Assembly: GCA_001761425.1 (NCBI GenBank)
Contig: CP012986.1
Span: 330,001-362,000, forward strand
DNA: 32,000 bases
Direction of reading: 5' to 3'
From: Candidatus Saccharimonadota bacterium
GTDB lineage: Archaea > Nanohalarchaeota > Nanosalinia > Nanosalinales > Nanosalinaceae
Part shown: one piece after another, positions 5,569 through 28,910 of the stretch
Numbering within the stretch: the first letter of the stretch is position 1
Layout of the letters: every line of letters starts with the position of its first letter
Position numbers and translations under genes: made by a program
The notes under the pieces: model-generated
The model's database searches: none
Seen by the model: the letters and a program-made list of their open reading frames with translations, nothing else
Told to the model about the DNA's origin: nothing

Positions 5569-6297
5569 CTAGAAAGCTGTCTGGTTTGGATACGTCACTA
5601 TACCGTTGTTTGTAATCTTCAGTGGGTGTATGTCTGACGAGTGGTCCGTACGGCGCATCTTGAAGACTTCCAGGGTTCTTGTTCTGGAGGATTCGGTTCT
5701 TTCATTTCCCAGGAGCAGGACTCCGTCAGCCACGAACTCTACGATCTGGTACTTTGATACCTGGCGCTCTCCGCCGGTGTAGGGGATCTCGGCCAGCAGG
5801 CATGCCGTACATTCCTGTTCTCTCAAAAACTGGGCGATCTCTGAAACCTTCTCTCTTCTGAGAGGTGAGGAATCGAAGACCATCGCAAACTTGGTGATAG
5901 AGTCAAGAACAACTCTGTCAGGTTCATACTGCTCGATCTGTCTCTTGAAAGCATCGATGAACCTGTCAGGCTCGAATACATCTCCTCCAGAACCTTCACG
6001 CATCAGGTTAAGCTCCTCGTGAAACTTCACGTTGCCAGCGACTCCCTCATCGTTCTCAAAGTCCATGTCAAAGTTCTTGCTTGTCTCAACGATGTTTCTG
6101 GCCGGCTCCTCCAGTGTAAAGTATATTCCTTTATCGTCATGATTCTTCGCGCCGTTATAGAGGAACTGGGTGGTCAAAGTAGTTTTACCTGCTCCAGACG
6201 TCCCGCTGACAACTATAGTATGTTCTTCAGGGATTCCACCGTTCAAAATCTGGTCGAGGCCTTGAACACCGGTCTTACATCTTGGGACTTCTGGCAT
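5569..6297 (-). CDS. KaiC/RecA-like single-domain ATPase (COG0467-type), canonical motifs
   Basis: GVQGLDQILNGGIPEEHTIVVSGTSGAGKTTLTTQFLYNGA (Walker A GxxGxGKT), RVVLDSITKF (Walker B), FKMRRTDHSSDIHPLKITNNGIVTY tail. Confidence 0.8.
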   Translation of the reverse strand: MPEVPRCKTGVQGLDQILNGGIPEEHTIVVSGTSGAGKTTLTTQFLYNGAKNHDDKGIYFTLEEPARNIVETSKNFDMDFENDEGVAGNVKFHEELNLMREGSGGDVFEPDRFIDAFKRQIEQYEPDRVVLDSITKFAMVFDSSPLRREKVSEIAQFLREQECTACLLAEIPYTGGERQVSKYQIVEFVADGVLLLGNERTESSRTRTLEVFKMRRTDHSSDIHPLKITNNGIVTYPNQTAF

Positions 6298-6405: not shown

Positions 6406-7098
6406 ATGGCAGGCGACAGAGTAAGCACAGGAGTTGAAGGCCTTGACGGGGCCATGGAAGGAGGTTTTCCCGCAAACTCTACAGTAATTCTAATGGGTTC
6501 TGACGGCACAGGAAAGGAATCGCTTGTCAACAAGTTCGTGTATCAAGGCCTTGAGGAAGGAGAGGAATCGATGTATGTCACTCTTGACGGTTCTCCTGAT
6601 GATGTAAAGGATGATGCAGATTACTACGGATGGGATTTCACAGACCACGACGACAGAATCGTATTCGTAGACGGCTACTCCTGGCAGGCAGGGGGAAGCG
6701 ATGAACAGTTCGCACTCGACGGTCTCTCGGACCTTAACCAGATGAACATGACATTTACAGACGCTTTGAACGCGCTTGGAAATGAGTCCAAACGTGTGGC
6801 CATCCATTCGGCTTCCACACTACTTCTCTATACAGATCCGAAATCCGCTGTAAAGTTCCTTCAGGTTGTCGGTGCGAAGAGTTCAAGCTCTGGTGGTTGC
6901 CTGGTAATCACTCTGGAAGAAGGGATGCACGATGAGAAGACAGTTAACACAATAAAACACGTTGCAGATGGAGTGATCAAGACCAAGCTGGATGGAGACG
7001 ACAAAAAACTTTCAATACAGAGGATGGACAAGACAGACACCAGCAGAGACTGGAAAGACTTCGAAGTAGATGATTCAGGAGACATAACAGTTTCTTAG
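6406..7098 (+). CDS. KaiC/RecA-like domain protein with degenerate Walker A and B (probable pseudo-ATPase)
   Basis: GVEGLDGAMEGGFPANSTVILMGSDGTGKESLVNKFVYQGL has Glu in place of the Walker A Ser/Thr (GKE). RVAIHSAST has His where the Walker B Asp is expected. A KaiC-like tail is present (SIQRMDKTDTSRDWKDFEVDDSGDITV). Confidence 0.7.
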   Translation: MAGDRVSTGVEGLDGAMEGGFPANSTVILMGSDGTGKESLVNKFVYQGLEEGEESMYVTLDGSPDDVKDDADYYGWDFTDHDDRIVFVDGYSWQAGGSDEQFALDGLSDLNQMNMTFTDALNALGNESKRVAIHSASTLLLYTDPKSAVKFLQVVGAKSSSSGGCLVITLEEGMHDEKTVNTIKHVADGVIKTKLDGDDKKLSIQRMDKTDTSRDWKDFEVDDSGDITVS

Positions 7099-7203: not shown

Positions 7204-7211
7204 TTTATAAA
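7204..7211 (+). promoter_or_regulatory. TATA-like box (TTTATAAA) for the KaiC-like/GTPase fusion gene
   Basis: Centre lies about 27 nt upstream of ATG 7234 with no purine-rich SD between, consistent with a leaderless archaeal mRNA. Confidence 0.45.
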
Positions 7212-7233: not shown

Positions 7234-8397
7234 ATGTCTAAGGTTAAGCTGCCACTTGAGAGACTTAATGAGGCCCTGGATGGAGGAGTAGAGGAAGGTT
7301 CCAACGTTCTTATACTAGCAGATCTGGCTGTAGACAAGTCAAAGTTCGCTTCTGCACTTGTTAACTACAGGCTAGATGAAGATGACAACCTGGTCTACTT
7401 CGTTAACAACAGGATGCCACAGTATATCAATGAGAGGATAGATAGTGAAAGAGCTGACGGTGAGACAGCTGTAATCGATGGATTCTCTTCAACACTGAAT
7501 AAAGAGTCAGAGGAAAGATTCAAGATCGATAAGGATCTCAAGGCAGACAGATCAGAATACCTCCAAGAATCCAAGGAAACAACAAAAGAGGCCTTGGAGG
7601 AGCTGGAGGACTGGGGAACAACCTACGTAATGGATTCTCTGGACACGTTCGCAGGTCAGTGGGAAGAAGTAGAGGACTTCGTAGACGAAATAGGTCCTGT
7701 AGCAGAAGATACTCTGGCAGTAAACTACTACTTCCTTCCAAACCTCGGATTCGAGGAAGACGACGATATAGAAAGACTGAAAGAAATATTCGACTACGTA
7801 ATACATCTCAAAGGCCTTGAAAGGTCGGGAATCGTACTAAAGTATATCGATATCAGAAAACCGGATATTGAGACAAAAGTTCCTTTCGACATCACACCGG
7901 AAGGCCTTGTCATGTATGTGCCTAAGATGCTTGTAACCGGGCCTTACGATGCAGGAAAATCTACCACTGTACAGAATATGTCTGAGGAGGCAGTATCTGT
8001 GGACAGACTTGGAACCACTGTCTCTCTGGATCATGGACAGGTCGAGAGAAATGGCCTGAAAGCTGAACTGTTCGGTACACCCGGCCAGAAACGTTTCGAC
8101 TGGGCGCTTGATTTCCTCGGCAGAAGCATCTTCGGATGTTTCATTGTAGTGGATTCCAGGGATCCTAACTATGAGAGAGTCCGGAAGCTGAAAGAGGATC
8201 TGGAGGCTGAGGAGTTACCGTTCATCATACTTGCCAACTTCCAGAACAAGGATGATGCCCTGTCTCCTGATGAAATCCAGGACGAGCTGAGTATCAAAAC
8301 AGTCGGAATCGATGCCAAACACGATGAAGGCCTTGATCAGGCACTCCAGTCGCTTATGGAGGAAATCCTGAGCAGGCATTCGTGGTATTACACATAG
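7234..8397 (+). CDS. Fusion protein: degenerate KaiC-like domain plus MglA/CvnD-type (COG2229-like) small GTPase
   Basis: N-terminal ~230 aa have a KaiC-like layout (LNEALDGGVEEGSNVLILADLAVDKSKF, TYVMDSLDTF, LKYIDIRKPD...FDITPEGLVMY) but no GK[ST]. The C-terminal ~155 aa (from ATG 7927) form a GTPase with G1 GPYDAGKST, G3 FGTPGQ (Thr instead of Asp, as in MglA-type GTPases) and G4 NKDD. ATG 7234 preferred over GTG 7228. Confidence 0.7.
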   Translation: MSKVKLPLERLNEALDGGVEEGSNVLILADLAVDKSKFASALVNYRLDEDDNLVYFVNNRMPQYINERIDSERADGETAVIDGFSSTLNKESEERFKIDKDLKADRSEYLQESKETTKEALEELEDWGTTYVMDSLDTFAGQWEEVEDFVDEIGPVAEDTLAVNYYFLPNLGFEEDDDIERLKEIFDYVIHLKGLERSGIVLKYIDIRKPDIETKVPFDITPEGLVMYVPKMLVTGPYDAGKSTTVQNMSEEAVSVDRLGTTVSLDHGQVERNGLKAELFGTPGQKRFDWALDFLGRSIFGCFIVVDSRDPNYERVRKLKEDLEAEELPFIILANFQNKDDALSPDEIQDELSIKTVGIDAKHDEGLDQALQSLMEEILSRHSWYYT

Positions 8398-8451: not shown

Positions 8452-8817
8452 ATGTCAAGTAAAGAGGAAAAGTTAAATGAGCCGTTGGATGATCTGGACA
8501 GTGTCCAGGGGATTAAAGGAGCTGCTGTTGTCAGAAGAGATGGTTTACTGATCGCATCAAATCTTGGCCAGGACATTGATGATGATCAGGTTGGTGCGAT
8601 GACAGCATCCACGGTAGGATCAGGAGAAACCGCCAGCGAAGCATTAAGCATGGGAGATGTTGATCAGGTTACTGTAGAATCAGACAACGGCAAACTCATT
8701 GCTACAGGTGCAGGAGACGAAGGAATACTCGCAATACTAACAGAAAGCGACGTCAACATGGGCCTTATCAAGGTTGAAATGAGCGACGCAGTGGACAAAG
8801 TCAAAAAAGTCCTGTAA
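8452..8817 (+). CDS. Roadblock/LC7 (MglB-like) domain protein
   Basis: 121 aa. GIKGAAVVRRDGLLIASNL...GAMTASTVGSGE...VTVESDNGKLIATGAGDEGILAILTE fits the Roadblock/LC7 pattern. Lies directly downstream of the GTPase gene. Confidence 0.8.
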   Translation: MSSKEEKLNEPLDDLDSVQGIKGAAVVRRDGLLIASNLGQDIDDDQVGAMTASTVGSGETASEALSMGDVDQVTVESDNGKLIATGAGDEGILAILTESDVNMGLIKVEMSDAVDKVKKVL

Positions 8818-8847
8818 AGACTATCTTCTCACTTTGTTATCAATTAG

Positions 8848-8855
8848 TTATAAAA
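8848..8855 (+). promoter_or_regulatory. TATA-like box (TTATAAAA) for the divergent PaaK-like gene
   Basis: About 28 nt upstream of ATG 8879. Supports the shorter start. Confidence 0.4.
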
Positions 8856-8878
8856 TTATTTTTATCCAGGTTTTTAAC

Positions 8879-10129
8879 ATGTCTGTATTCTCTCGGCCGT
8901 ATGAATCTCTAGAAGGCCTGAGAAATGAGCTTGAAGATAGAAGTCTTCTAGACTACATGGTGGAAAATACACGGGGAGATGTAGAGGTTCCGTACAAAAA
9001 TAATAATTTGGATGAGGAGGCCTATGTTCAGGCGGTAATGGATATTCATTTTGATGAGGATTACGGTACTCCGTACTGGCTAGAGCACGCTAACAGGCTT
9101 GATTTCGATCCCAGAGAAGAGATCGATTCTTTCCAGGATCTTTCAAAGCTCGGCGTTGCAGATGAAGAGGCGCTCGTAGAGAGGCCTGTAGAGGATTTCA
9201 TGCCCCGATTATTCTCTAGAAACTTAGAAGAAGCGGACAATTACAGTGAACTTGTCCCAGATTCATCTGCTTATGATATGTCTAAGTCATCAGGTTCAAC
9301 GGGGAAGAAAAAGGTGATGCCCTGGAGAAAACATCTTTCAGATGAAGTATCGGACTGGTACAATTTCAACTTTGAATTAAGAGATATAGATGGAGGCAAC
9401 TGGCTGATCGCAGGCCCTCCAGGCCTTTACGAGAAACAGATTAGATCTGCCGCTGAGAAGAGAGGAGGATTCCCTTTATTCAGTGGGATAGAGACAAGAA
9501 GGCTTAAACCTCAGCTTAAACAGCTTGGCAGGCTAAGTGAGGAGCCTTATAGCTTCCTCAAAGACTCTGTAACGGAGCCAGGTAATATCAAAGAGGCTCT
9601 GGAAGGCCTTGTAAGGATGAAATATACTTTACGGGCGATGGAGGAGGATCTACAGTCTGAGGAGGTGGGTGTTATCGCGAGCGCGCCGGAGCCTGTTGAA
9701 CGAGTGCACGGGATGCTGGAGTCGGATGATGCCCGTTCTACGCCTGAAGATGTCAACGCATTGCTGATGAGTGGTATGGGGACGACACAGGAGACTGTAG
9801 ATAGATTGGAACAGAAATACCCTAATGCGGAAGCAATCCCGATGTATGCCACATCGTTTACGGGAGCAAACTTTGACAACCCCAAAAGTGATGACTTTGA
9901 ATATCATTCAATACATCCGTTCATCAGTTTTGATGTAGTAGAATCTGAAGGAACAGGGCTTGGAGATACTGTGGACTATGGGGAAAGAGGACAGGTCGTG
10001 CTCAACCATCTCTCTTCAGGGTTCCTCTGGCCTAACCAGACAGAAAGAGAGACAGCAGAGAGAAGGTTTCCAGCAGAACTATTTGGGGGAGGCGACGGGA
10101 TAGCTGATATAAGGCCTCTGTCTGACTAG
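8879..10129 (+). CDS. Divergent adenylate-forming enzyme, PaaK/coenzyme F390 synthetase-like
   Basis: N-terminal region parallels PaaK (YGTPYWLEHANRLDFDPREEIDSFQDLSKLGVADEEAL). P-loop-like SKSSGSTGKKKVMPW. MYATSFTG occupies the position of YGxTE. ATG 8879 preferred over the track's TTG 8834 because TTATAAAA lies 28 nt upstream. Confidence 0.5.
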   Translation: MSVFSRPYESLEGLRNELEDRSLLDYMVENTRGDVEVPYKNNNLDEEAYVQAVMDIHFDEDYGTPYWLEHANRLDFDPREEIDSFQDLSKLGVADEEALVERPVEDFMPRLFSRNLEEADNYSELVPDSSAYDMSKSSGSTGKKKVMPWRKHLSDEVSDWYNFNFELRDIDGGNWLIAGPPGLYEKQIRSAAEKRGGFPLFSGIETRRLKPQLKQLGRLSEEPYSFLKDSVTEPGNIKEALEGLVRMKYTLRAMEEDLQSEEVGVIASAPEPVERVHGMLESDDARSTPEDVNALLMSGMGTTQETVDRLEQKYPNAEAIPMYATSFTGANFDNPKSDDFEYHSIHPFISFDVVESEGTGLGDTVDYGERGQVVLNHLSSGFLWPNQTERETAERRFPAELFGGGDGIADIRPLSD

Positions 10130-10695
10130 ATGTTCTGTACACTTCGAAGCTGTTTTCTAATTGATCTGACATCAGGATGAACGTACTGAAGAATGTAGTT
10201 GTATCCCCAGACAAAACTTCTGTCGAGGTCATGTTTTAGCTCAGAGCTCTGAAGTTCCTCCCATGTTTCTTCCCCAAATTCAGATTTATCATGGTAATCT
10301 GTAGTGTGAGGTCCGTACGTAGGGTCTGCTACTATCCACTCTCCGTCAACTTTTATCTGTACAGGACCGTGGATAGAGCTTTCGGTCTCACCCTTGATCT
10401 TATTCTCCATCCTGCAGTTGATTAAAAATATTCTGGCAGGGATATCAAGAGAACGCAGGAGAGAAATCAGCAAGTTCGACTTGCTGAAACTCATAGCTTT
10501 ACTATTTTCCCTACCTAACAGGGCCTCAGAGCTCTCGATACTTCTCATATCCCAGCAGTAATTATCTCTAACCCACTCAAAAAGTTCTCTGGCAGACTTC
10601 TCCTTATCTTCTTCGTCGCTCACGATCCCTGCTGCCTTACTCCTAGTTCTCTCATTTACCGAGATCAGGTATCCAGAACCTCTGAATTCTGACAT
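10126..10695 (-). CDS. Transglutaminase-like (papain-fold) domain protein, nucleophile position Ser
   Basis: ELFEWVRDNYCWD...SKAMSFSKSNLLISLLRSLDIPARIF...SIHGPVQIKVDGEWIVADPTYG matches the transglutaminase-core order (nucleophile ... IPAR ... H ... W..DPT). ATG 10695 preferred over TTG 10701. The stop overlaps the stop of the convergent gene (CTAG 10126-10129). Confidence 0.55.
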   Translation of the reverse strand: MSEFRGSGYLISVNERTRSKAAGIVSDEEDKEKSARELFEWVRDNYCWDMRSIESSEALLGRENSKAMSFSKSNLLISLLRSLDIPARIFLINCRMENKIKGETESSIHGPVQIKVDGEWIVADPTYGPHTTDYHDKSEFGEETWEELQSSELKHDLDRSFVWGYNYILQYVHPDVRSIRKQLRSVQNI

Positions 10696-10715
10696 ATTCA
10701 AAGACTAAAACTGCA

Positions 10716-10776: not shown

Positions 10777-12219
10777 ATGCCTTTCCGGAGTACTGTAGCT
10801 TCATACTTTGAGGATCTGGCAAAAATACTTGATGGAGAAGATGAGCAACAGAGAATGGTCAGAGAAGGCCTTTCCCCAGGCATGACTGAAGAAGAGTTAA
10901 GCGAGTACCGGGACAGAAGAGTTTCTGAGCACATTAATCATGCGTATAACAATACTGATTTTTACAGAAATCTCCTTGATGAGGAAAATATAGATCCGGA
11001 GGAAATCCAGACAGTTGAGGACCTTTCCAGGATTCCTCCTACTACTGGAGAGGATCTTGAGCAGGCAGATATGGATTTCCCTGATTATCCGTTCCTAGCA
11101 ACAGGATGGGATGAAGTCGCAAGGGTCAATGAGAGTTCAGGTACCGGCGGAGGAGATCCGAAACAGCAGATGATGAGCTATGAAGATATGGAGAGGAACG
11201 GTCTTGAACAGGCGAGAATTTACGGCGGGGAGCTTGGTATCGATGAATCTGATACTGTACTACAGCTTCTGCCTTTCAGCCTTAATACCTCTGGTTTTAC
11301 AGGTTACAAGGGGGCTGAGGCTATTGACGCTACTCAGCTGACTGCTGGTGTTATGGTCCCTCCTGAGAAGCATGCTCAGCTGGTTGATGAATACCAACCT
11401 GAAGCAATCATCGCGCTTCCATCCTATGCCAATCGGTTTACAGATGTTCTTGAGCAACAAGGCATAGATCCGGCAGATTCATCTATAGAAAACGTGATCG
11501 TAGGAGGAGAGGCCTTCACAGATAAGCAACTGAGCATGATGGAGGATAAGTACGATGCCAGGGTAACACAGGCCTATGGCATGACAGAGGCAGGAGGAAT
11601 TACAGGCGGAGAAGTAGAAATAGGAAACGGCATGCATCTTCTGGAAGACAATTTTATCTTCGAGATAGTGGATCCTAAAACCTATGAGCCTGTAGAGGAT
11701 GGAGAAATCGGCGAAGTACTGTTTACACCTGTAGGGAGAGATGCAATGCCTCTGATAAGGTACGCACCTAGAGATTTCTCTCGTTTCAGGACTGATGAGG
11801 ATGTTATTAGTACTCCTTTTAGCAGGATCGATACTCCCTGGAGGAAACACAATGTAGCCGATATTGAAGGAGTTGAGATCTATCCAGGGAAAGTGGGGGA
11901 TAAGATACTGGATATAGACGAAGAGCTTAAGAGAGAACACGGCATCAACGGAGAGTTCAAGATCACCCTGGACTACGAAGAGGATGAGAGCCAGTACCAG
12001 ATGGATATAGAAGTTGAAGGAGATAGAAGAACTGAAATGGTAGAAAATGAGATGAAAGGATCTCTCTTCGAAATACTGGAGTTCAGCTCGATAGACTCAC
12101 AGACCGTGGCGGACATAAATGTAGATGTTGTGCCAAAAGGTGAACTCCAGACAAAGGGCAAGGCCGAGAGAATAGAGCTAACTGACGACTACAGAGAGTT
12201 TAAAGGAATGGAACTCTAA
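10777..12219 (+). CDS. Phenylacetate-CoA ligase/coenzyme F390 synthetase-like adenylate-forming enzyme
   Basis: NTDFYRNLLDEENIDPEEIQTVEDLSRIPPTTGEDL, NESSGTGGGDPKQQMMSY (variant of SSGTTGKPK), AYGMTEAGG (YGxTE), IRYAPRDFS (RYRTRD-like). Confidence 0.75.
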   Translation: MPFRSTVASYFEDLAKILDGEDEQQRMVREGLSPGMTEEELSEYRDRRVSEHINHAYNNTDFYRNLLDEENIDPEEIQTVEDLSRIPPTTGEDLEQADMDFPDYPFLATGWDEVARVNESSGTGGGDPKQQMMSYEDMERNGLEQARIYGGELGIDESDTVLQLLPFSLNTSGFTGYKGAEAIDATQLTAGVMVPPEKHAQLVDEYQPEAIIALPSYANRFTDVLEQQGIDPADSSIENVIVGGEAFTDKQLSMMEDKYDARVTQAYGMTEAGGITGGEVEIGNGMHLLEDNFIFEIVDPKTYEPVEDGEIGEVLFTPVGRDAMPLIRYAPRDFSRFRTDEDVISTPFSRIDTPWRKHNVADIEGVEIYPGKVGDKILDIDEELKREHGINGEFKITLDYEEDESQYQMDIEVEGDRRTEMVENEMKGSLFEILEFSSIDSQTVADINVDVVPKGELQTKGKAERIELTDDYREFKGMEL

Positions 12220-12229
12220 TTTAACTTAG

Positions 12230-12772
12230 ATGGCAAACGAGTTCTTCGGAAGACTGATGGACACCGGCGAATTCAGGTTCAATGAAAATGGGATTCTATT
12301 CTACTTCGGAGCACCAACAATGCTCTTCAACATTAATACTATGGTTTCGCTTCAGAAAGACCTAGAAGAAAAAAATGTAGCGGAGGAATCCCTCAAAAAA
12401 GTCGGAGGAAACCAATCAAGAAGAGCCCTGAAACGATACGAGGACAGATATAACTTCGATGAACTCAGCAGAAACGAGATAATGAAGTTCATAGACGATC
12501 TCACAGATGTAATCGCGCTCGGCGAATTCACAATAAGCAAGATGGACCAGAAAGAGGATATAGTATACGCCATAGAGAACAGGACCAATCCAATCGCCAG
12601 AGTCTACAGAAAAGAATATGGGGAAGCAGATTCACCAAGAGATTTCTTCCTCCAAGGCCTGATAGAGAAAGGCCTTGACGCACTTGAAAGTAAAGATCTT
12701 GAAGTAGAAGAAAAAGAATGCATGGCCAAGGGAGACGACAGATGCCTCTTTGTAGCAAGACCTAAAGACTGA
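12230..12772 (+). CDS. V4R (4-vinyl reductase-type) small-molecule-binding domain protein
   Basis: 180 aa. The C-terminal FFLQGLIEKGLDALESKDLEVEEKECMAKGDDRCLFVARPKD carries the paired-Cys V4R signature (C-x-A-x-GD-x-x-C-x-F). Starts 10 nt after the PaaK-like gene. Confidence 0.6.
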   Translation: MANEFFGRLMDTGEFRFNENGILFYFGAPTMLFNINTMVSLQKDLEEKNVAEESLKKVGGNQSRRALKRYEDRYNFDELSRNEIMKFIDDLTDVIALGEFTISKMDQKEDIVYAIENRTNPIARVYRKEYGEADSPRDFFLQGLIEKGLDALESKDLEVEEKECMAKGDDRCLFVARPKD

Positions 12773-17730: not shown

Positions 17731-18180
17731 CTATTTTAGAGTCCTGTAAAAAGTGCTGTCGCATGGAAGCAGTGTCACGTTCTCGTTTTCCATCCACTCT
17801 GAGCCAGTTCTGTTGTCGTAACTTGCCTCAAAGGTCCATTCCATCCCTCTTGTGTCTTCACTGCAGATGTTGTAGGCCTGGACCATGAGCTCGGCCTCGA
17901 CACGTCTGTAATAGTTTTCTGTTCCTTCCTCGGCTTCCGTATAATTTTCGTAATTGTATGTAGTATGTTCTCTTCTCTGGATTCCGAGGCAGACTCCTGT
18001 ATCAAGGCCTACGCATTCTGTCGTGACTTCTACCATGCCAACTCTGACAGGCTCATCGGCAGTTGTGTAGTTTCCAACTCCGACCACCGCTCCTACCAGA
18101 AGAAGGGTAATACCAACGAATGCGGCGTCTTTCTGAAATCCTTCCAAACCGTTCAGAGGGTTTTTCTCCCGGAAATCCAT
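17731..18180 (-). CDS. Hypothetical N-terminally anchored, Cys-containing ectoprotein
   Basis: Internal ATG 18180 (MDFREKNPL...) gives a 149-aa protein with one TM helix (AAFVGITLLLVGAVVGVG) and avoids the 144-nt overlap with the HerA-like gene. No family recognised. Confidence 0.4.
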   Translation of the reverse strand: MDFREKNPLNGLEGFQKDAAFVGITLLLVGAVVGVGNYTTADEPVRVGMVEVTTECVGLDTGVCLGIQRREHTTYNYENYTEAEEGTENYYRRVEAELMVQAYNICSEDTRGMEWTFEASYDNRTGSEWMENENVTLLPCDSTFYRTLK

Positions 18181-18276
18181 ATTACCGGGTGAGGCCTTCA
18201 GCTTCTTAAATCCATCGCGTAGAATATCGGATGTGAATTTATCAATACTCAGGCCTCTACATGAATTAGAGACCTT

Positions 18277-20145
18277 ATGCAGCTGGGAACTATTGAAGGC
18301 GAGGTCGATACCTCCTCGTTCGAATTTCGGGCCACAGAAGAAGTAAGAAAATTCGATTTCGTATCCGTCAAGAGCAGTGACAAATGGATACTCGCACAGG
18401 TAGAAGAAGTCACCAAACACCCGGATGGAGAAACTCTGGCCAGGGCCAACATCATTGGATACAGGGATAAAGGCCTGACAAAGGCTCCGAGAAGAGTCAT
18501 AGAACCAGATTCAATAGTCTATCAGGCCGACCAGGAGCTGATCTCAGAGACTCTAGGCCTACAGGATAAAGGCCTTCAGGTCGGTAATCTTGAGACTAAC
18601 GAGGATATAGATATCCATGTTAATGCTGATCAGTTCTACAAGCACTTCGCAGTTTTAGCTCAGACCGGTGCCGGTAAATCATACTTGACCGGAGTTTTGA
18701 TCGAGGAGCTTCTTGAGCAGGATATGCCTGTGATGATCTTGGATCCTCACGGCGAGTTCTCATCTCTCAGGAATCCGAACCCGGAGAAAGAGGACGGAGA
18801 GACCAGAGGATATAATCTGAAGGAGTATTCGCCCAATACAGATATTAACTCGGAGGCGATGCCTCTGCAGTTTTCCTCCAAGAATCTCGGGAAAAAGGAA
18901 CTGATGACACTGATTCCTGATTCCCTGACTAACTCACAGATGGGTGTTCTCTATAATTCGCTGAAGAGGCTGAAGGAGAAGGAAGAGGACTACAGTCTAC
19001 TTGATATCGAGGACGCGGTGTCTCAGGAGGACTCGACCGCGAAATGGAACCTTCTGAACTACCTGGAGCAGCTTGAGGAATCAGGCCTCTTTGATCCGGA
19101 TCCTGTCGATCTAACAGATCTTCTTGAGCCTGGACAGGCCACGGTCATCAATTTGAAAGCGGTTGAACCGGATGCAGCGGAGATGACTGCCTACATGCTG
19201 GCGAAAAAACTTTTCGATCTCAGAAAGAAGGATATGGTTCCGCCGTTCCTGATGGTGATGGAGGAGGCCCATAACTTTGTACCGGAGAAAGGCTTCGGAC
19301 AGGCAGTATCAAACCCGATCCTCAGAAAGATCGCATCTGAAGGAAGAAAGTTCGGTCTAGGCCTCGGCGTTATCTCTCAGAGACCTGCGAGAATCGATAA
19401 AAACGTACTCAGCCAGTGTAACACCCAGTTTATCCTGAGGGTTACAAACCCAAATGACCTGAAAGCAATTTCCAAGTCCTTCGAGGGAATAACTTCTGAA
19501 GTCGAGGACATGATTAAATCCCTGCCTCCAGGAGTCTCCTTTGTCCTTGGAAACGATTACCCTGTTATGACAGATGTGAGGCAGAGAAAGAGCCAGCACG
19601 GCGGGGAAACTCAGACTGCGGAGACATACGTCGAGAAAGAGAATATCGAGGCCTTCAAACCGCAGAGAGAGCTCAGCGAGGTCAAACATGAGATTGGAGA
19701 AGATCTCTCAGAGGCCTGGTATCCGCTGTATCTTGTCGAGAACCTGGAGAAAAAAATTCTCATCGACGGTGTGAAAGATCAGACTAAGGCGGAGAAGCCG
19801 AAGGTTGAAGGCCAGGACAGGAAAATCCTGGATCTAATCAAGGAGGGAAGATCGAAGAGCGAGATAGTGGACGAAACCGGCCTTCAGGTCTCAAAGATAG
19901 CCTCCAAAATGTCCGAACTCCAGGATAAAGGCCTTATCGATGAGAACAATGAAGTTGAGGAGACAATTTTCGATGCAGGTCTAGATGATCAGGTTGTGAA
20001 GGAAGAGACCCTGATAGAGTACGAGGTCGATAAGGAAGAGGCCGGATCTCGGCTTCCGGATTCTTCGGTTTCGAGAGTTTATTATCCATACTTCTCGGAT
20101 CAGGATACTGTATACGATCCTGTGCTGGAGAAAAAGGTAGGTTGA
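18277..20145 (+). CDS. HerA/DUF87-family (FtsK-HerA superfamily) ATPase with C-terminal HTH-like extension
   Basis: N-terminal barrel-like region (GTIEGEVDTSSFEFRATEE...VSVK), Walker A AVLAQTGAGKSY, ILDPHGEF, Walker B FLMVMEEAHNF, SEGRKFGLGLGVISQRP. The extra ~150 aa include RKILDLIKEGRSKSEIVDETGLQVSKIASKMSELQDKGLI. Confidence 0.75.
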   Translation: MQLGTIEGEVDTSSFEFRATEEVRKFDFVSVKSSDKWILAQVEEVTKHPDGETLARANIIGYRDKGLTKAPRRVIEPDSIVYQADQELISETLGLQDKGLQVGNLETNEDIDIHVNADQFYKHFAVLAQTGAGKSYLTGVLIEELLEQDMPVMILDPHGEFSSLRNPNPEKEDGETRGYNLKEYSPNTDINSEAMPLQFSSKNLGKKELMTLIPDSLTNSQMGVLYNSLKRLKEKEEDYSLLDIEDAVSQEDSTAKWNLLNYLEQLEESGLFDPDPVDLTDLLEPGQATVINLKAVEPDAAEMTAYMLAKKLFDLRKKDMVPPFLMVMEEAHNFVPEKGFGQAVSNPILRKIASEGRKFGLGLGVISQRPARIDKNVLSQCNTQFILRVTNPNDLKAISKSFEGITSEVEDMIKSLPPGVSFVLGNDYPVMTDVRQRKSQHGGETQTAETYVEKENIEAFKPQRELSEVKHEIGEDLSEAWYPLYLVENLEKKILIDGVKDQTKAEKPKVEGQDRKILDLIKEGRSKSEIVDETGLQVSKIASKMSELQDKGLIDENNEVEETIFDAGLDDQVVKEETLIEYEVDKEEAGSRLPDSSVSRVYYPYFSDQDTVYDPVLEKKVG

Positions 20146-26285: not shown

Positions 26286-28886
26286 CTACCTGGATTCAAG
26301 CTGGTATTTTAACTCTCCGTCCTTCTTTACCTCCACCTCTATTTTCCCTTCTTTAGCCAGCCATCCCAGGGCCTGATTCATAACCTCTTCGGAATCAACT
26401 TTCTCATCGGTATAATCTTTTAGCTTGGAGGCAGTAGCTTTCCCGTGCTTGTTCAATGTCTCATAAACTTCCCCGGCACTCCTGCCGATATCATCCACAG
26501 AAAGGGACTCGATCTGGTCCTGAACCTGATCCTGAACATCGTCGATATCCACTTCAACTTCATTCCTAGCTGATCCTTCATCCACGCTATGATCAGGTGC
26601 TCCTCTTTTTTCCTCGGCGTCCGCAACCTTCAGGATGGTCTCAAGAGCGACGTCAGGGGAAACGGAAATCGCATCGATACCCTGACCGACGAGAAACTCA
26701 GCATATCCGTCGTGAGTCGAAGGCGCATCCCCACAGATACCGACGTGTCGGTTCTTACTGTGAGCTTTCTCGATCAGAGTCCTCACAGATTCTTTAACAG
26801 CCGGATCTCTCTCATCAAATACTTCGGAAAGTTTGTCCGAGTTCCTGTCCACACCGAGAGTCAACTGGGTCAGATCGTTTGTACCAATGCTGAAACCGTC
26901 GAAGACCTCAGCAAAGTCCTCTGCACGCAGAATATTCGCAGGAATCTCCGCCATCACAAAGACATCGATATCGCCTTCATCCAGGCCGTACTCCTTCATC
27001 TTGGCACGGACCTTATTACCTTCGTCTACCGTACGGCAGAAAGGAACCATGATAGTGATATTATCAAGGTCCAGTTCATCTATCGCCTGACGCAAGGCCT
27101 TGCACTCCAGTTCGAAGGCCTTTGAGAACTCCTCATCGTAGTAACGCGAAGCTCCCCTGAAACCAAGCATGGGGTTCGCCTCATCTGGCTCGTAGTCCTC
27201 TCCGCCCTTCAGGTCAGCGTACTCATCCGACTTGAAATCGCTCAGTCGGACCACCACCTGGTCAGGGTAAAAAGCTGCTCCAATCTTGCCGATCCCACTC
27301 CTCAAGGCCTCTACGTATTCGTCTTCACGGTCTTCCTCAATCAGCTTCAATGGGTGTTCTCCGACATGGCTGGAGATTATGAACTCTTCTCTTGCGAGGC
27401 CTACTCCTTCGACAGGTAGCTGTGCGACGTGGAAAACCTCGCTTGGTTCTCCGATGTTTACCTGTACATCGGTCTCCGTATCTGGTATTTTGTCTAAGTG
27501 GTGTTCCTCGACATTGTAATCAAGCTCTCCGTTCCACACTTTTCCTGTGCTTGATGAACAGTCTACCGTCACCTTTTGACCGTCCTTCAGCTTTGAGGTC
27601 GCATTCTCCGTTCCGATCACTGCGGGTACGCCTAGTTCTCTTGATACGATGGCTGCGTGACTGGTTCTTCCGCCTTTGTTTGTGATTATTGCTCCTGCCT
27701 GTTTCATGATCGGTTCCCAGTCAGGATCGGTCATATCTGTCACCAAGACTTCTCCTTCCTCGAACTGGTCAATCTCCTTGGGCGAATCCAGCACATGTGC
27801 TGTTCCATTCCCGATCTTGGAGCCGATGGCTTCTCCTTCAAGAACTACTTCGGATTCTTCCTCCAGTTTGTGGTCTTCGATCACGTTTTCGTCTTTCTCT
27901 GCCTGTACTGTTTCAGGCCTTGCCTGGACGATGTAAAGTTCTTTTGTCTGTCCGTCCAGAACCCATTCAATATCCATGGGCTTTCCGTAATGGTCTTCTA
28001 TCCTGAGAGCGTACTTCGCTAGCTCCTGGACCTGATTATCTGTTATACAGTATTTCTCTCTTTCCGCCTTATCTACGTTGACTTCCTTGTTGTCATTTTC
28101 CTTGTCTTCGTCGTCTCTAACCAGTTTTACTTCTTTGTCTCCGAGTTTTCTCTCGATGATTCCGAGATTCTCCTTGAAGACCGTAAATTCATCTGGGTTA
28201 ACCTCTCCCAGTACAACGTACTCTCCAAGTCCATAGCTTCCGTTGATAGTTACTACGTTGTCGAACCCGGAGTCCGGATCCAGTGTGAACATCACTCCGG
28301 CAGCACCGATGTCAGAACGCCCCATCTTCTGGACCACAGCAGAAAGTTTCACGTCAAAATGGCTAAAGCCTTTGTCCTCCCTGTAGGAGATAGCTCTGTT
28401 CGTGAATAGAGATGCATAACAGTCTTTCACCCGTTTGATCAAATCCTGTTTCCCCTGAACGTTGAGATAGGTCTCCTGCTGGCCAGCGAAAGAAGCTCCA
28501 GGAAGATCCTCCGCTGTAGCCGATGAACGCACGGCAACCTCAGGGTTATCTACTCCAAGCTTTTCCTCAAGCTCCTCGTAGGCCTCCACAAAGCTTTCTC
28601 TAAGCTCTTCCGGCATCTCAGCCTCCTTGATATGAGACCGGATCTGCTCTCCTCTTCTCTGCAGATCACTGACATCATCCGTATCAAGGCCGTCCAGAAG
28701 TTTCTCGATCTTGTCTCTCAGGTCTGTATCATGTATAAACTTATCGTAGGCATCAGCTGTCGTAGCATAACCTGGTAGGACCGGCACATCCACCTCATTA
28801 CTGAGCTCTCCAAGATTAGCGCTTTTTCCTCCCACTTTTCCAGTATCGTCCGCGTTTATATTTTCAAACCAGAAAACATTATCCAT
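26286..28886 (-). CDS. ppsA: Phosphoenolpyruvate synthase (pyruvate, water dikinase) with C-terminal DUF2582-like winged-helix extension
   Basis: GGKSANLGEL (ATP-grasp N-domain), GGRTSHAAIVSRELGVPAV (phospho-His swivel domain), GTNDLTQLTLGVDR and HVGICGD (PEP-utilizer TIM barrel). A ~105-aa tail follows. ATG 28886 preferred over GTG 28904. Confidence 0.9.
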   Translation of the reverse strand: MDNVFWFENINADDTGKVGGKSANLGELSNEVDVPVLPGYATTADAYDKFIHDTDLRDKIEKLLDGLDTDDVSDLQRRGEQIRSHIKEAEMPEELRESFVEAYEELEEKLGVDNPEVAVRSSATAEDLPGASFAGQQETYLNVQGKQDLIKRVKDCYASLFTNRAISYREDKGFSHFDVKLSAVVQKMGRSDIGAAGVMFTLDPDSGFDNVVTINGSYGLGEYVVLGEVNPDEFTVFKENLGIIERKLGDKEVKLVRDDEDKENDNKEVNVDKAEREKYCITDNQVQELAKYALRIEDHYGKPMDIEWVLDGQTKELYIVQARPETVQAEKDENVIEDHKLEEESEVVLEGEAIGSKIGNGTAHVLDSPKEIDQFEEGEVLVTDMTDPDWEPIMKQAGAIITNKGGRTSHAAIVSRELGVPAVIGTENATSKLKDGQKVTVDCSSSTGKVWNGELDYNVEEHHLDKIPDTETDVQVNIGEPSEVFHVAQLPVEGVGLAREEFIISSHVGEHPLKLIEEDREDEYVEALRSGIGKIGAAFYPDQVVVRLSDFKSDEYADLKGGEDYEPDEANPMLGFRGASRYYDEEFSKAFELECKALRQAIDELDLDNITIMVPFCRTVDEGNKVRAKMKEYGLDEGDIDVFVMAEIPANILRAEDFAEVFDGFSIGTNDLTQLTLGVDRNSDKLSEVFDERDPAVKESVRTLIEKAHSKNRHVGICGDAPSTHDGYAEFLVGQGIDAISVSPDVALETILKVADAEEKRGAPDHSVDEGSARNEVEVDIDDVQDQVQDQIESLSVDDIGRSAGEVYETLNKHGKATASKLKDYTDEKVDSEEVMNQALGWLAKEGKIEVEVKKDGELKYQLESR

Positions 28887-28910
28887 AATAAAGAAAAATT
28901 TCACAGGGCT

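Follow-up and report, generated by a model that had tools for sequence, protein, structure and literature searches.

An inactivated KaiC-like domain fused to a small GTPase: an archaeal protein family usually encoded beside a predicted Roadblock regulator

KaiC-like ATPases have been proposed as main signalling hubs of archaea, and pairs of MglA and Roadblock proteins are ancient GTPase switches related to the Arf, Rag and Ragulator systems of eukaryotes. The gene described here lies at positions 7234-8397 of a stretch of 32,000 nucleotides (contig CP012986.1 of GenBank assembly GCA_001761425.1, positions 330,001 to 362,000 of the forward strand; hereafter, the window) from a nanohaloarchaeal genome. 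An earlier note, made from the letters of the DNA, had read it as a single open reading frame (ORF) fusing an inactivated KaiC-like domain to a small GTPase; ORF analysis, domain searches and the existence of full-length homologues confirmed that reading.

Four described systems can be compared with this protein. MglA GTPases of Groups 2-5 are defined by a GTPGQ motif and by a Thr that replaces the Arg finger of Group 1 (Wuichet and Sogaard-Andersen 2015, PMC4316618). Group 4 is archaeal, lacks the bacterial insertion between G1 and G2, and has been placed near Arf, Sar and SR-beta (PMC4316618). The regulator of MglA is MglB, a protein with the Roadblock fold (PMC4316618, PMC10933270), and the MglB proteins coupled to MglA of Groups 2-5 carry a conserved Asp-Gly pair (PMC4316618). 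The survey from which these groups derive was centred on single-domain GTPases of ~160-180 amino acids and found Group 4 to have no conserved neighbours (PMC4316618). The fusion resembles the MglA-MglB systems of Groups 2-5, including archaeal Group 4: it has the GTPGQ motif, a Thr-Thr pair in G2, no G1-G2 insertion, and an adjacent Roadblock gene with the Asp-Gly pair. Features of Group 1, the group of Myxococcus xanthus and Thermus thermophilus MglA (TVPGQ, an Arg finger in switch I, the G1-G2 insertion), are absent. It differs in that the fusion is a two-domain protein of 387 amino acids rather than a single domain of ~160-200, with ~225 N-terminal residues formed by an inactivated KaiC domain, and in that the G4 motif is degenerate in the nanohaloarchaeal clade.

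Inactivated KaiC-like domains, or iKaiC, are recognised signalling modules of archaea (Galperin et al. 2018, PMC5847659). The N-terminal domain of the fusion has the attributes of the class, namely a KaiC fold, disrupted catalytic motifs and attachment to a signalling component; however, the partners described in PMC5847659 are REC, HalOD1, PAS and the like, while here the partner is a small GTPase. In fold (RecA/KaiC) and length, the domain is like PH0284 (2dr3), PH0186 (2zts) and Sso2452 (2w0m). The GTPase domain, in turn, finds its best sequence and structure match in Arf/Arl proteins, including Asgard ArfR (8ouk, 8oul, 8oum), with an hhalign value of 98.6% against Arf1. Unlike Arf/Arl, it has Thr instead of Asp in G3, it lacks the N-terminal amphipathic helix (it is an internal domain), and it is paired with a Roadblock protein and not with Arf guanine nucleotide exchange factors (GEFs) or GTPase-activating proteins (GAPs). 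The actinobacterial conservon (CvnA histidine kinase, CvnB Roadblock, CvnC, CvnD MglA-like GTPase) is likewise a multi-gene set that combines a GTPase of the Group 2-5 type, a Roadblock protein and a signalling NTPase or kinase (PMC4316618). In the archaeal locus, in contrast, KaiC-family proteins occupy the slot of the sensor kinase, two of them apparently dead and one of these fused to the GTPase.

The features of the fusion gene are given below. Two sets of relatives support them: 113 full-length database homologues, and 34 non-redundant loci found by scanning one genome per GTDB species.

7204-7211, plus strand: TATA-like box TTTATAAA, ~26 nt 5' of ATG 7234, read from the sequence
7234-8397, plus strand: iKaiC-GTPase fusion gene, 387 amino acids and a TAG stop codon (ORF, full-length homologues, AlphaFold2 model)
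7234-7908, plus strand: inactivated KaiC/RecA-fold domain, amino acids 1-225 (profile against PDB, Foldseek, weak Pfam and NCBIfam matches)
7318-7341, plus strand: degenerate Walker A, A29-D-L-A-V-D-K-S36, replacing GxxGxGK[ST] and aligned to GGPGTGKT of PH0284
7405-7410, plus strand: N58-N59 in place of the catalytic Glu-Glu pair of KaiC (YFVNNRMP against YVALEEHP of PH0284)
7633-7635, plus strand: retained Walker B Asp134, invariant in alignment A1
7909-8394, plus strand: small GTPase domain (G domain), amino acids 226-387 (Pfam, NCBIfam, PDB profile, domain model, Foldseek)
7915-7941, plus strand: linker-less junction Y-V-P-K-M-L-V-T-G, containing ATG 7927-7929 (Met232)
7939-7962, plus strand: G1 (P-loop) GPYDAGKS; GxxxxGK[ST] is kept in all homologues
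8014-8019, plus strand: G2 Thr261-Thr262; TT is invariant (GTTV)
8074-8088, plus strand: G3 G-T-P-G-Q, with Thr for Asp; FGTPGQ in 108 of the 113 homologues
8236-8247, plus strand: degenerate G4, N335-F-Q-N338, at the NKxD position; aligned to NKQD of non-nanohaloarchaeal homologues and to NKRD of Myxococcus xanthus MglA
8311-8316, plus strand: G5, [ST]A changed to DA (DAK in the window), amino acids 360-361, in the same clade as NFQN

The ORF starts at ATG 7234 (GTG 7228 is an alternative start) and stops at TAG 8395-8397. Read against the general layout of archaeal promoters, the position of TTTATAAA suggests that the gene may have its own promoter and a leaderless mRNA starting at ATG 7234. 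The strings quoted in the earlier note (LILADLAVDKSKF, amino acids 26-38; MLVTGPYDAGKST; FGTPGQ; NKDD) are all present in the ORF. The AlphaFold2 (AF2) model of the full-length protein has a predicted local distance difference test score (pLDDT) of 85.8 and a predicted template modelling score (pTM) of 0.81.

Searched alone, the N-terminal domain gave a DUF7504 match of 22.6 bits in Pfam, below the gathering threshold of 27, and a weak match to thermo_KaiC_1 in NCBIfam (E=4.5e-5). A family profile built from 18 members retrieved from PDB two KaiC-like ATPases of Pyrococcus horikoshii, PH0284 (2dr3, E=4e-18, profile positions 2-232) and PH0186 (2zts, E=4e-14). When the AF2 model was submitted to Foldseek, PH0284 was matched with a template modelling (TM) score of 0.78-0.80, followed by cyanobacterial KaiC and Sso2452. 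Distant homologues of the fusion match PF06745 (KaiC). The assignment of the domain to the RecA/KaiC alpha-beta fold, over ~230 residues, is solid on the profile and on the Foldseek matches of the model; both searches agree with the previous call of a KaiC-like architecture in residues ~1-230.

Loss of the P-loop, also claimed before, is borne out by alignment to PH0284: LILADLAVDKSKF aligns exactly to LLSGGPGTGKTIF, with ADLAVDKS where GxxGxGK[ST] is expected. The segment that contains N58-N59 also aligns to YFTLEEPA in the canonical KaiC encoded nearby, and NN, TN, SS or similar pairs occupy the Glu-Glu position across the family. The K-x-R-G motif has lost its trans-acting Arg, with Ile at that position in the alignment to KMRG of PH0284. 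Asp134 of Walker B is the only catalytic motif of the domain that remains in the window protein; this Asp is kept in DPANN-type members and absent from many euryarchaeal members. Because an intact P-loop was found in none of the 113 homologues nor in any of the 34 loci, the N-terminal domain appears to have been a pseudo-ATPase throughout the history of the family. At the greatest distances sampled, identity is 33% in the N-terminal domain versus 47% in the G domain, and the sequences indicate that both halves are under purifying selection. The idea that the GTPase takes the place of the CII domain of KaiC was discarded: the Foldseek alignments to full-length KaiC had a root-mean-square deviation of ~12 A, and their query TM-score did not exceed that obtained with single-domain PH0284.

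The C-terminal half is recognised as a small GTPase by every search. In Pfam it matches Arf (PF00025) with 29.9 bits (cutoff 22.3), MMR_HSR1 with 28.2 bits, and Ras; in NCBIfam (TIGR), small_GTP. The corresponding part of the family profile retrieves Arf, Arl and Rab from PDB. A model of the isolated domain (pLDDT 83.6) gave Foldseek matches to the FeoB G domain, Asgard Arf, Arl (Arl2/3) and Rab, that is, to a generic small-GTPase fold, and MglA was not among the top 50. Nor is the resemblance to Myxococcus MglA strong at the sequence level: BLASTP gave 20% identity, with a gap of 15 residues at the G1-G2 insertion of MglA, and the hhalign score was 63.7 against MglA versus 97.7 against human Arf1. 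The nearest single-domain relatives in a library of 1.8 billion proteins also carry G[TS]PG[QH] and TT. The 'MglA-type' label given earlier to the GTPase is justified in the sense of Groups 2-5 (GTPGQ, TT, Roadblock neighbour), but the domain lies closer to Arf than to the MglA of Myxococcus. Such nearness to Arf agrees with the placement of archaeal Group 4 by Wuichet.

The most unusual feature of the window protein is its G4 motif. The string NKDD, taken before as G4, is indeed present; however, family alignments and BLASTP against MglA put the NKxD position on NFQN. The K-D-D that follows N338 varies among homologues, which have NKEG, NKEE, NMDD or NAED. NFQN is common to all aligned sequences (~90) that are 51-100% identical to the window protein; wherever these sequences name a source, the label is Nanohaloarchaea or Nanohalobium. 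Every other lineage of the family retains NK[QAH]D at G4 and [ST]A at G5. Strings of the type NK[QSA]N occur in other members, as pattern matches whose placement at G4 was not confirmed by alignment. The window protein has neither of the guanine-recognition motifs, [NT]KxD at G4 and SA[KL] at G5; G1, G2 and G3 are all in order.

The fusion was found full length across DPANN, methanogens, anaerobic methanotrophic archaea (ANME) and Archaeoglobi. A search at E<=1e-3 yielded 153 homologues, of which the best 120 are almost without exception full length; at E<1e-30, 148 representatives of 50%-identity clusters were retrieved, with ~100 full-length proteins among the top 150 representatives. Homologues are 360-425 amino acids long, with 53-100% identity in Ca. 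Nanohalobium and other Nanohaloarchaea, and 33-45% in Aenigmatarchaeota and Micrarchaeota. The species scan added Woesearchaeota, Altiarchaeota, Parvarchaeota (ARMAN-4) and Nanoarchaeota within DPANN and, outside DPANN, Methanocellales (including a complete Methanocella genome), Methanobacterium, Methanosarcinales, ANME-2, Methanoperedens, Archaeoglobaceae and Hecatellales. At these levels of sequence similarity, chance can be considered excluded as the source of homology, and the gene of the window is best described as a typical member of an ancient, widespread archaeal family, not as an oddity of one genome.

The relatives bear on two other explanations of the gene. One is an artefact: two adjacent genes, one KaiC-like and one for a stand-alone GTPase, would have been merged by loss of a stop codon or by a frameshift, a concern raised earlier for positions 7900-7950. 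We found nothing in its favour, and more than 100 independent assemblies, drawn from several phyla, show the same full-length architecture. The junction, Y-[IV]-P-K-[ILM]-L-[VI]-T-G-P, is near-invariant and ranks among the best-conserved segments of the family (it was one of two peptide patterns picked for the species-genome scan), and in the AF2 model a single beta-strand, residues 224-235, continues from the last strand of the KaiC domain into beta-1 of the G domain. Full-length homologues, conserved junction and continuous strand together exclude a lost stop or frameshift, to the point that the chance of an artefact is practically negligible. The sole broken copy, in a Hadarchaeota locus (L033, 71-1293), consists of two overlapping ORFs; it was considered as a natural split version and rejected, since the break falls inside the N-terminal domain and not at the domain boundary, and it is probably a frameshift or a pseudogene. 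The other explanation is that initiation at the internal ATG 7927 yields a free GTPase isoform. This ATG is in frame (codon 232) and stands precisely where beta-1 of the G domain begins, an arrangement that would suit an internal start. On the other hand, Met232 is found in 31 of the 113 homologues only, all of them close relatives, and Ile, Leu or Val take its place in the rest; neither a TATA-like nor a Shine-Dalgarno-like sequence was seen 5' of ATG 7927 when the window sequence was read; and a second in-frame ATG lies 15 nt upstream, which leaves nothing special about this one. An internal start is therefore very improbable, and the isoform once suggested for this position lacks support.

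The fusion gene is part of a neighbourhood in which the order is canonical KaiC (on the minus strand), iKaiC partner, fusion and Roadblock/LC7. The genes that surround the fusion are the following:

5569-6297, minus strand: canonical KaiC-like ATPase, divergent; Pfam KaiC 196 bits; GTSGAGKTT, LEE, LDS and KMRR intact
6406-7098, plus strand: iKaiC partner, single-domain protein of the DUF7504 type, 230 amino acids; Pfam KaiC 102 bits, DUF7504 47.5 bits (above threshold)
8452-8817, plus strand: Roadblock/LC7 protein (MglB-like), predicted GTPase regulator; Pfam Robl_LC7 66.4 bits

The partner has GSDGTGKES at the P-loop, TLDG instead of LEE, and IHS for the LDS of Walker B (His for Asp), and is itself probably catalytically dead. 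Between the two KaiC-like genes upstream of the fusion, only 5569-6297 looks active. Orthologues of the partner elsewhere show differing degenerate states, and the copy in L004 has an intact P-loop. The partner-type profile gives the N-terminal domain of the fusion a higher score than canonical KaiC does, which suggests that domain and partner form a paralogous pair. In the Roadblock protein the Asp-Gly pair is conserved (RRDG in the window), as in MglB proteins coupled to MglA of Groups 2-5.

Conservation of the arrangement was surveyed by running hidden Markov models made from the window proteins on the fetched loci, and a gene was counted as near when it lay within 800 nt of the fusion. A Roadblock gene is near in 30 of the 34 loci and an iKaiC partner in 27, with both present in 23. 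The order of the genes differs from lineage to lineage, and contig ends interrupt some of the loci. Canonical KaiC genes also occur near the module in L001, L007, L009, L013 and L026.

On balance, we lean towards a reading in which the protein, a linker-less iKaiC-GTPase, works as part of a three-gene module with its iKaiC paralogue and the Roadblock protein, and couples the state of the GTPase to signalling by KaiC hubs. The GTPase domain would act as a nucleotide-dependent switch. A dimer of the Roadblock protein would bind the G domain and control hydrolysis or exchange, by analogy with the action of MglB on MglA. The dead KaiC domain, unable to hydrolyse ATP, would offer a rigid docking surface and assemble with the iKaiC paralogue, possibly also with a ring of active KaiC; in this manner the state of the GTPase might be physically coupled to signalling by KaiC hubs. 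The earlier note had pictured a scaffold docked by the neighbouring KaiC-like paralogues and regulated by the downstream Roadblock protein: synteny across archaeal phyla favours the link, whereas the paralogue immediately upstream turns out to be an inactivated KaiC. Several points weigh against the coupling proposed here. Four of the 34 loci have no adjacent Roadblock gene and seven have no partner, although some of these are truncations at contig ends. A TATA-like element of its own appears to precede each gene in the window, so that co-transcription is at most a possibility. Transfer of the MglA-MglB mechanism is an analogy, as the G domain is nearer in sequence and fold to Arf, Arl, Rab and FeoB than to Myxococcus MglA, and MglA proteins of Groups 2-5 lack an intrinsic Arg finger (PMC4316618).

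A different role for the iKaiC domain is that of an intramolecular regulator, acting mainly on its own GTPase as a GAP, a GEF, a guanine nucleotide dissociation inhibitor (GDI) or an effector lid; docking between proteins would not be its function, and the neighbouring iKaiC would compete with it or mimic it. A rigid, linker-less and strongly conserved connection would be in keeping with such a role, as would the pTM of the model, which suggests a fixed geometry between the domains, and the conservation of the N-terminal domain in spite of its dead catalysis. However, PH0284 crystallises as a six-chain assembly (2dr3 chains A-F), which favours a role in oligomers, and the persistence of a paralogous iKaiC is most simply explained by hetero-oligomerisation. 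We consider an intramolecular regulator unlikely. A separate matter is the nucleotide used by the nanohaloarchaeal proteins. When Asn replaces Asp in NKxD, the preference of Ras, EF-Tu and Rab proteins moves towards xanthine nucleotides; ATP is preferred by YchF/OLA1, whose G4 is non-canonical. In view of these precedents, NFQN at G4 makes a change of base specificity or of affinity plausible in the nanohaloarchaeal G domain. A stronger proposal is that the domain is no longer guanine-specific, whether by use of ATP or xanthosine triphosphate (XTP), by very fast exchange or by conversion into a pseudo-GTPase. Both NKQD to NFQN and [ST]A to DA are found in the same nanohaloarchaeal clade, and distant relatives retain NK[QAH]D; yet the conservation of intact G1, G2 and G3 motifs makes it probable that NTP is still bound and hydrolysed, and sequence alone cannot predict specificity. 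We regard loss of guanine specificity as conceivable, if rather doubtful.

If these elements are combined, an archaea-specific G-protein machine can be envisaged in which a pseudo-KaiC hetero-oligomer, possibly a ring and possibly docking active KaiC, would serve an MglA/Arf-like switch as platform, GEF or effector, with a derivative of a Ras-superfamily GTPase, driven by ATP or XTP or cycling fast, in the nanohaloarchaea as obligate symbionts. The whole of this picture is distinctly improbable as it stands. If true, it would mean that the proposed KaiC 'signalling hub' is wired directly to small-GTPase signalling.

Two additional genes, ~4 kb downstream of the module, may be related to it, and the second KaiC closes the neighbourhood:

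12230-12772, plus strand: V4R-domain protein, possible accessory component; Pfam V4R 37.7 bits
12762-13454, minus strand: second canonical, motif-intact KaiC-like ATPase; Pfam KaiC 192.8 bits, NCBIfam KaiC_arch_3

V4R genes adjoin the fusion/Roadblock module in L004, L013, L019, L021, L023 and L027. They also adjoin stand-alone GTPGQ GTPases accompanied by Roadblock genes in Anaerolineae (L039, L040, L042, L049, L067 and L075). This grouping of a GTPase with Roadblock and V4R proteins recalls TRAPP-like sets. In a metagenome-assembled genome of Halobacteriota (L021, 4285-10833) the module is amplified locally: the fusion occurs as two tandem copies, interspersed with four Roadblock and several V4R genes.

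Three genes separate the module from the V4R gene, and three more were noted further downstream:

8834-10129, plus strand: weak GH3-like protein with a TATA-like box of its own; probable start ATG 8879
10126-10701, minus strand: transglutaminase-like protein
10777-12219, plus strand: PaaK/F390-synthetase-like AMP ligase
17731-18420, minus strand: ORF overlapping or adjoining the HerA-type gene, without a Pfam match
18277-20145, plus strand: HerA-type helicase gene (DUF87)
26286-28904, minus strand: enzyme of the phosphoenolpyruvate synthase / pyruvate phosphate dikinase type, 872 amino acids, with an extra C-terminal winged-helix DUF2582

The GH3-like, transglutaminase-like and PaaK-like genes were considered as parts of the module and rejected, as they are not syntenic in L007, which is 71% identical. 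A GH3-like homologue lies ~5 kb from the module in L004, and none is found in the closer relative L007. Membership of an anti-phage defence system was likewise dismissed: PADLOC gave only marginal matches to mad8, of ~19-25 bits and at the level of the P-loop. Genes for a type IV pilus or an archaellum, sought as a possible output of the module, are not present in the window, whose remainder is mostly housekeeping.

The family is uncharacterised. Database names for its members are generic ('small GTP-binding protein', 'ADP-ribosylation factor-like protein', 'ATPase domain-containing protein'), and no description of an iKaiC-GTPase fusion was found in the full-text literature, in a search that did not cover Makarova et al. 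2017. Because the survey of MglA-type GTPases was centred on single-domain proteins and gave no conserved neighbours for archaeal MglA, the family fills a gap left by it. The conservation of a covalent link between KaiC and a GTPase, from DPANN symbionts to methanogens, suggests that the two act in one pathway. The module offers a defined three-protein system for biochemistry, and the loss of NKxD in nanohaloarchaea a natural experiment in GTPase base specificity.

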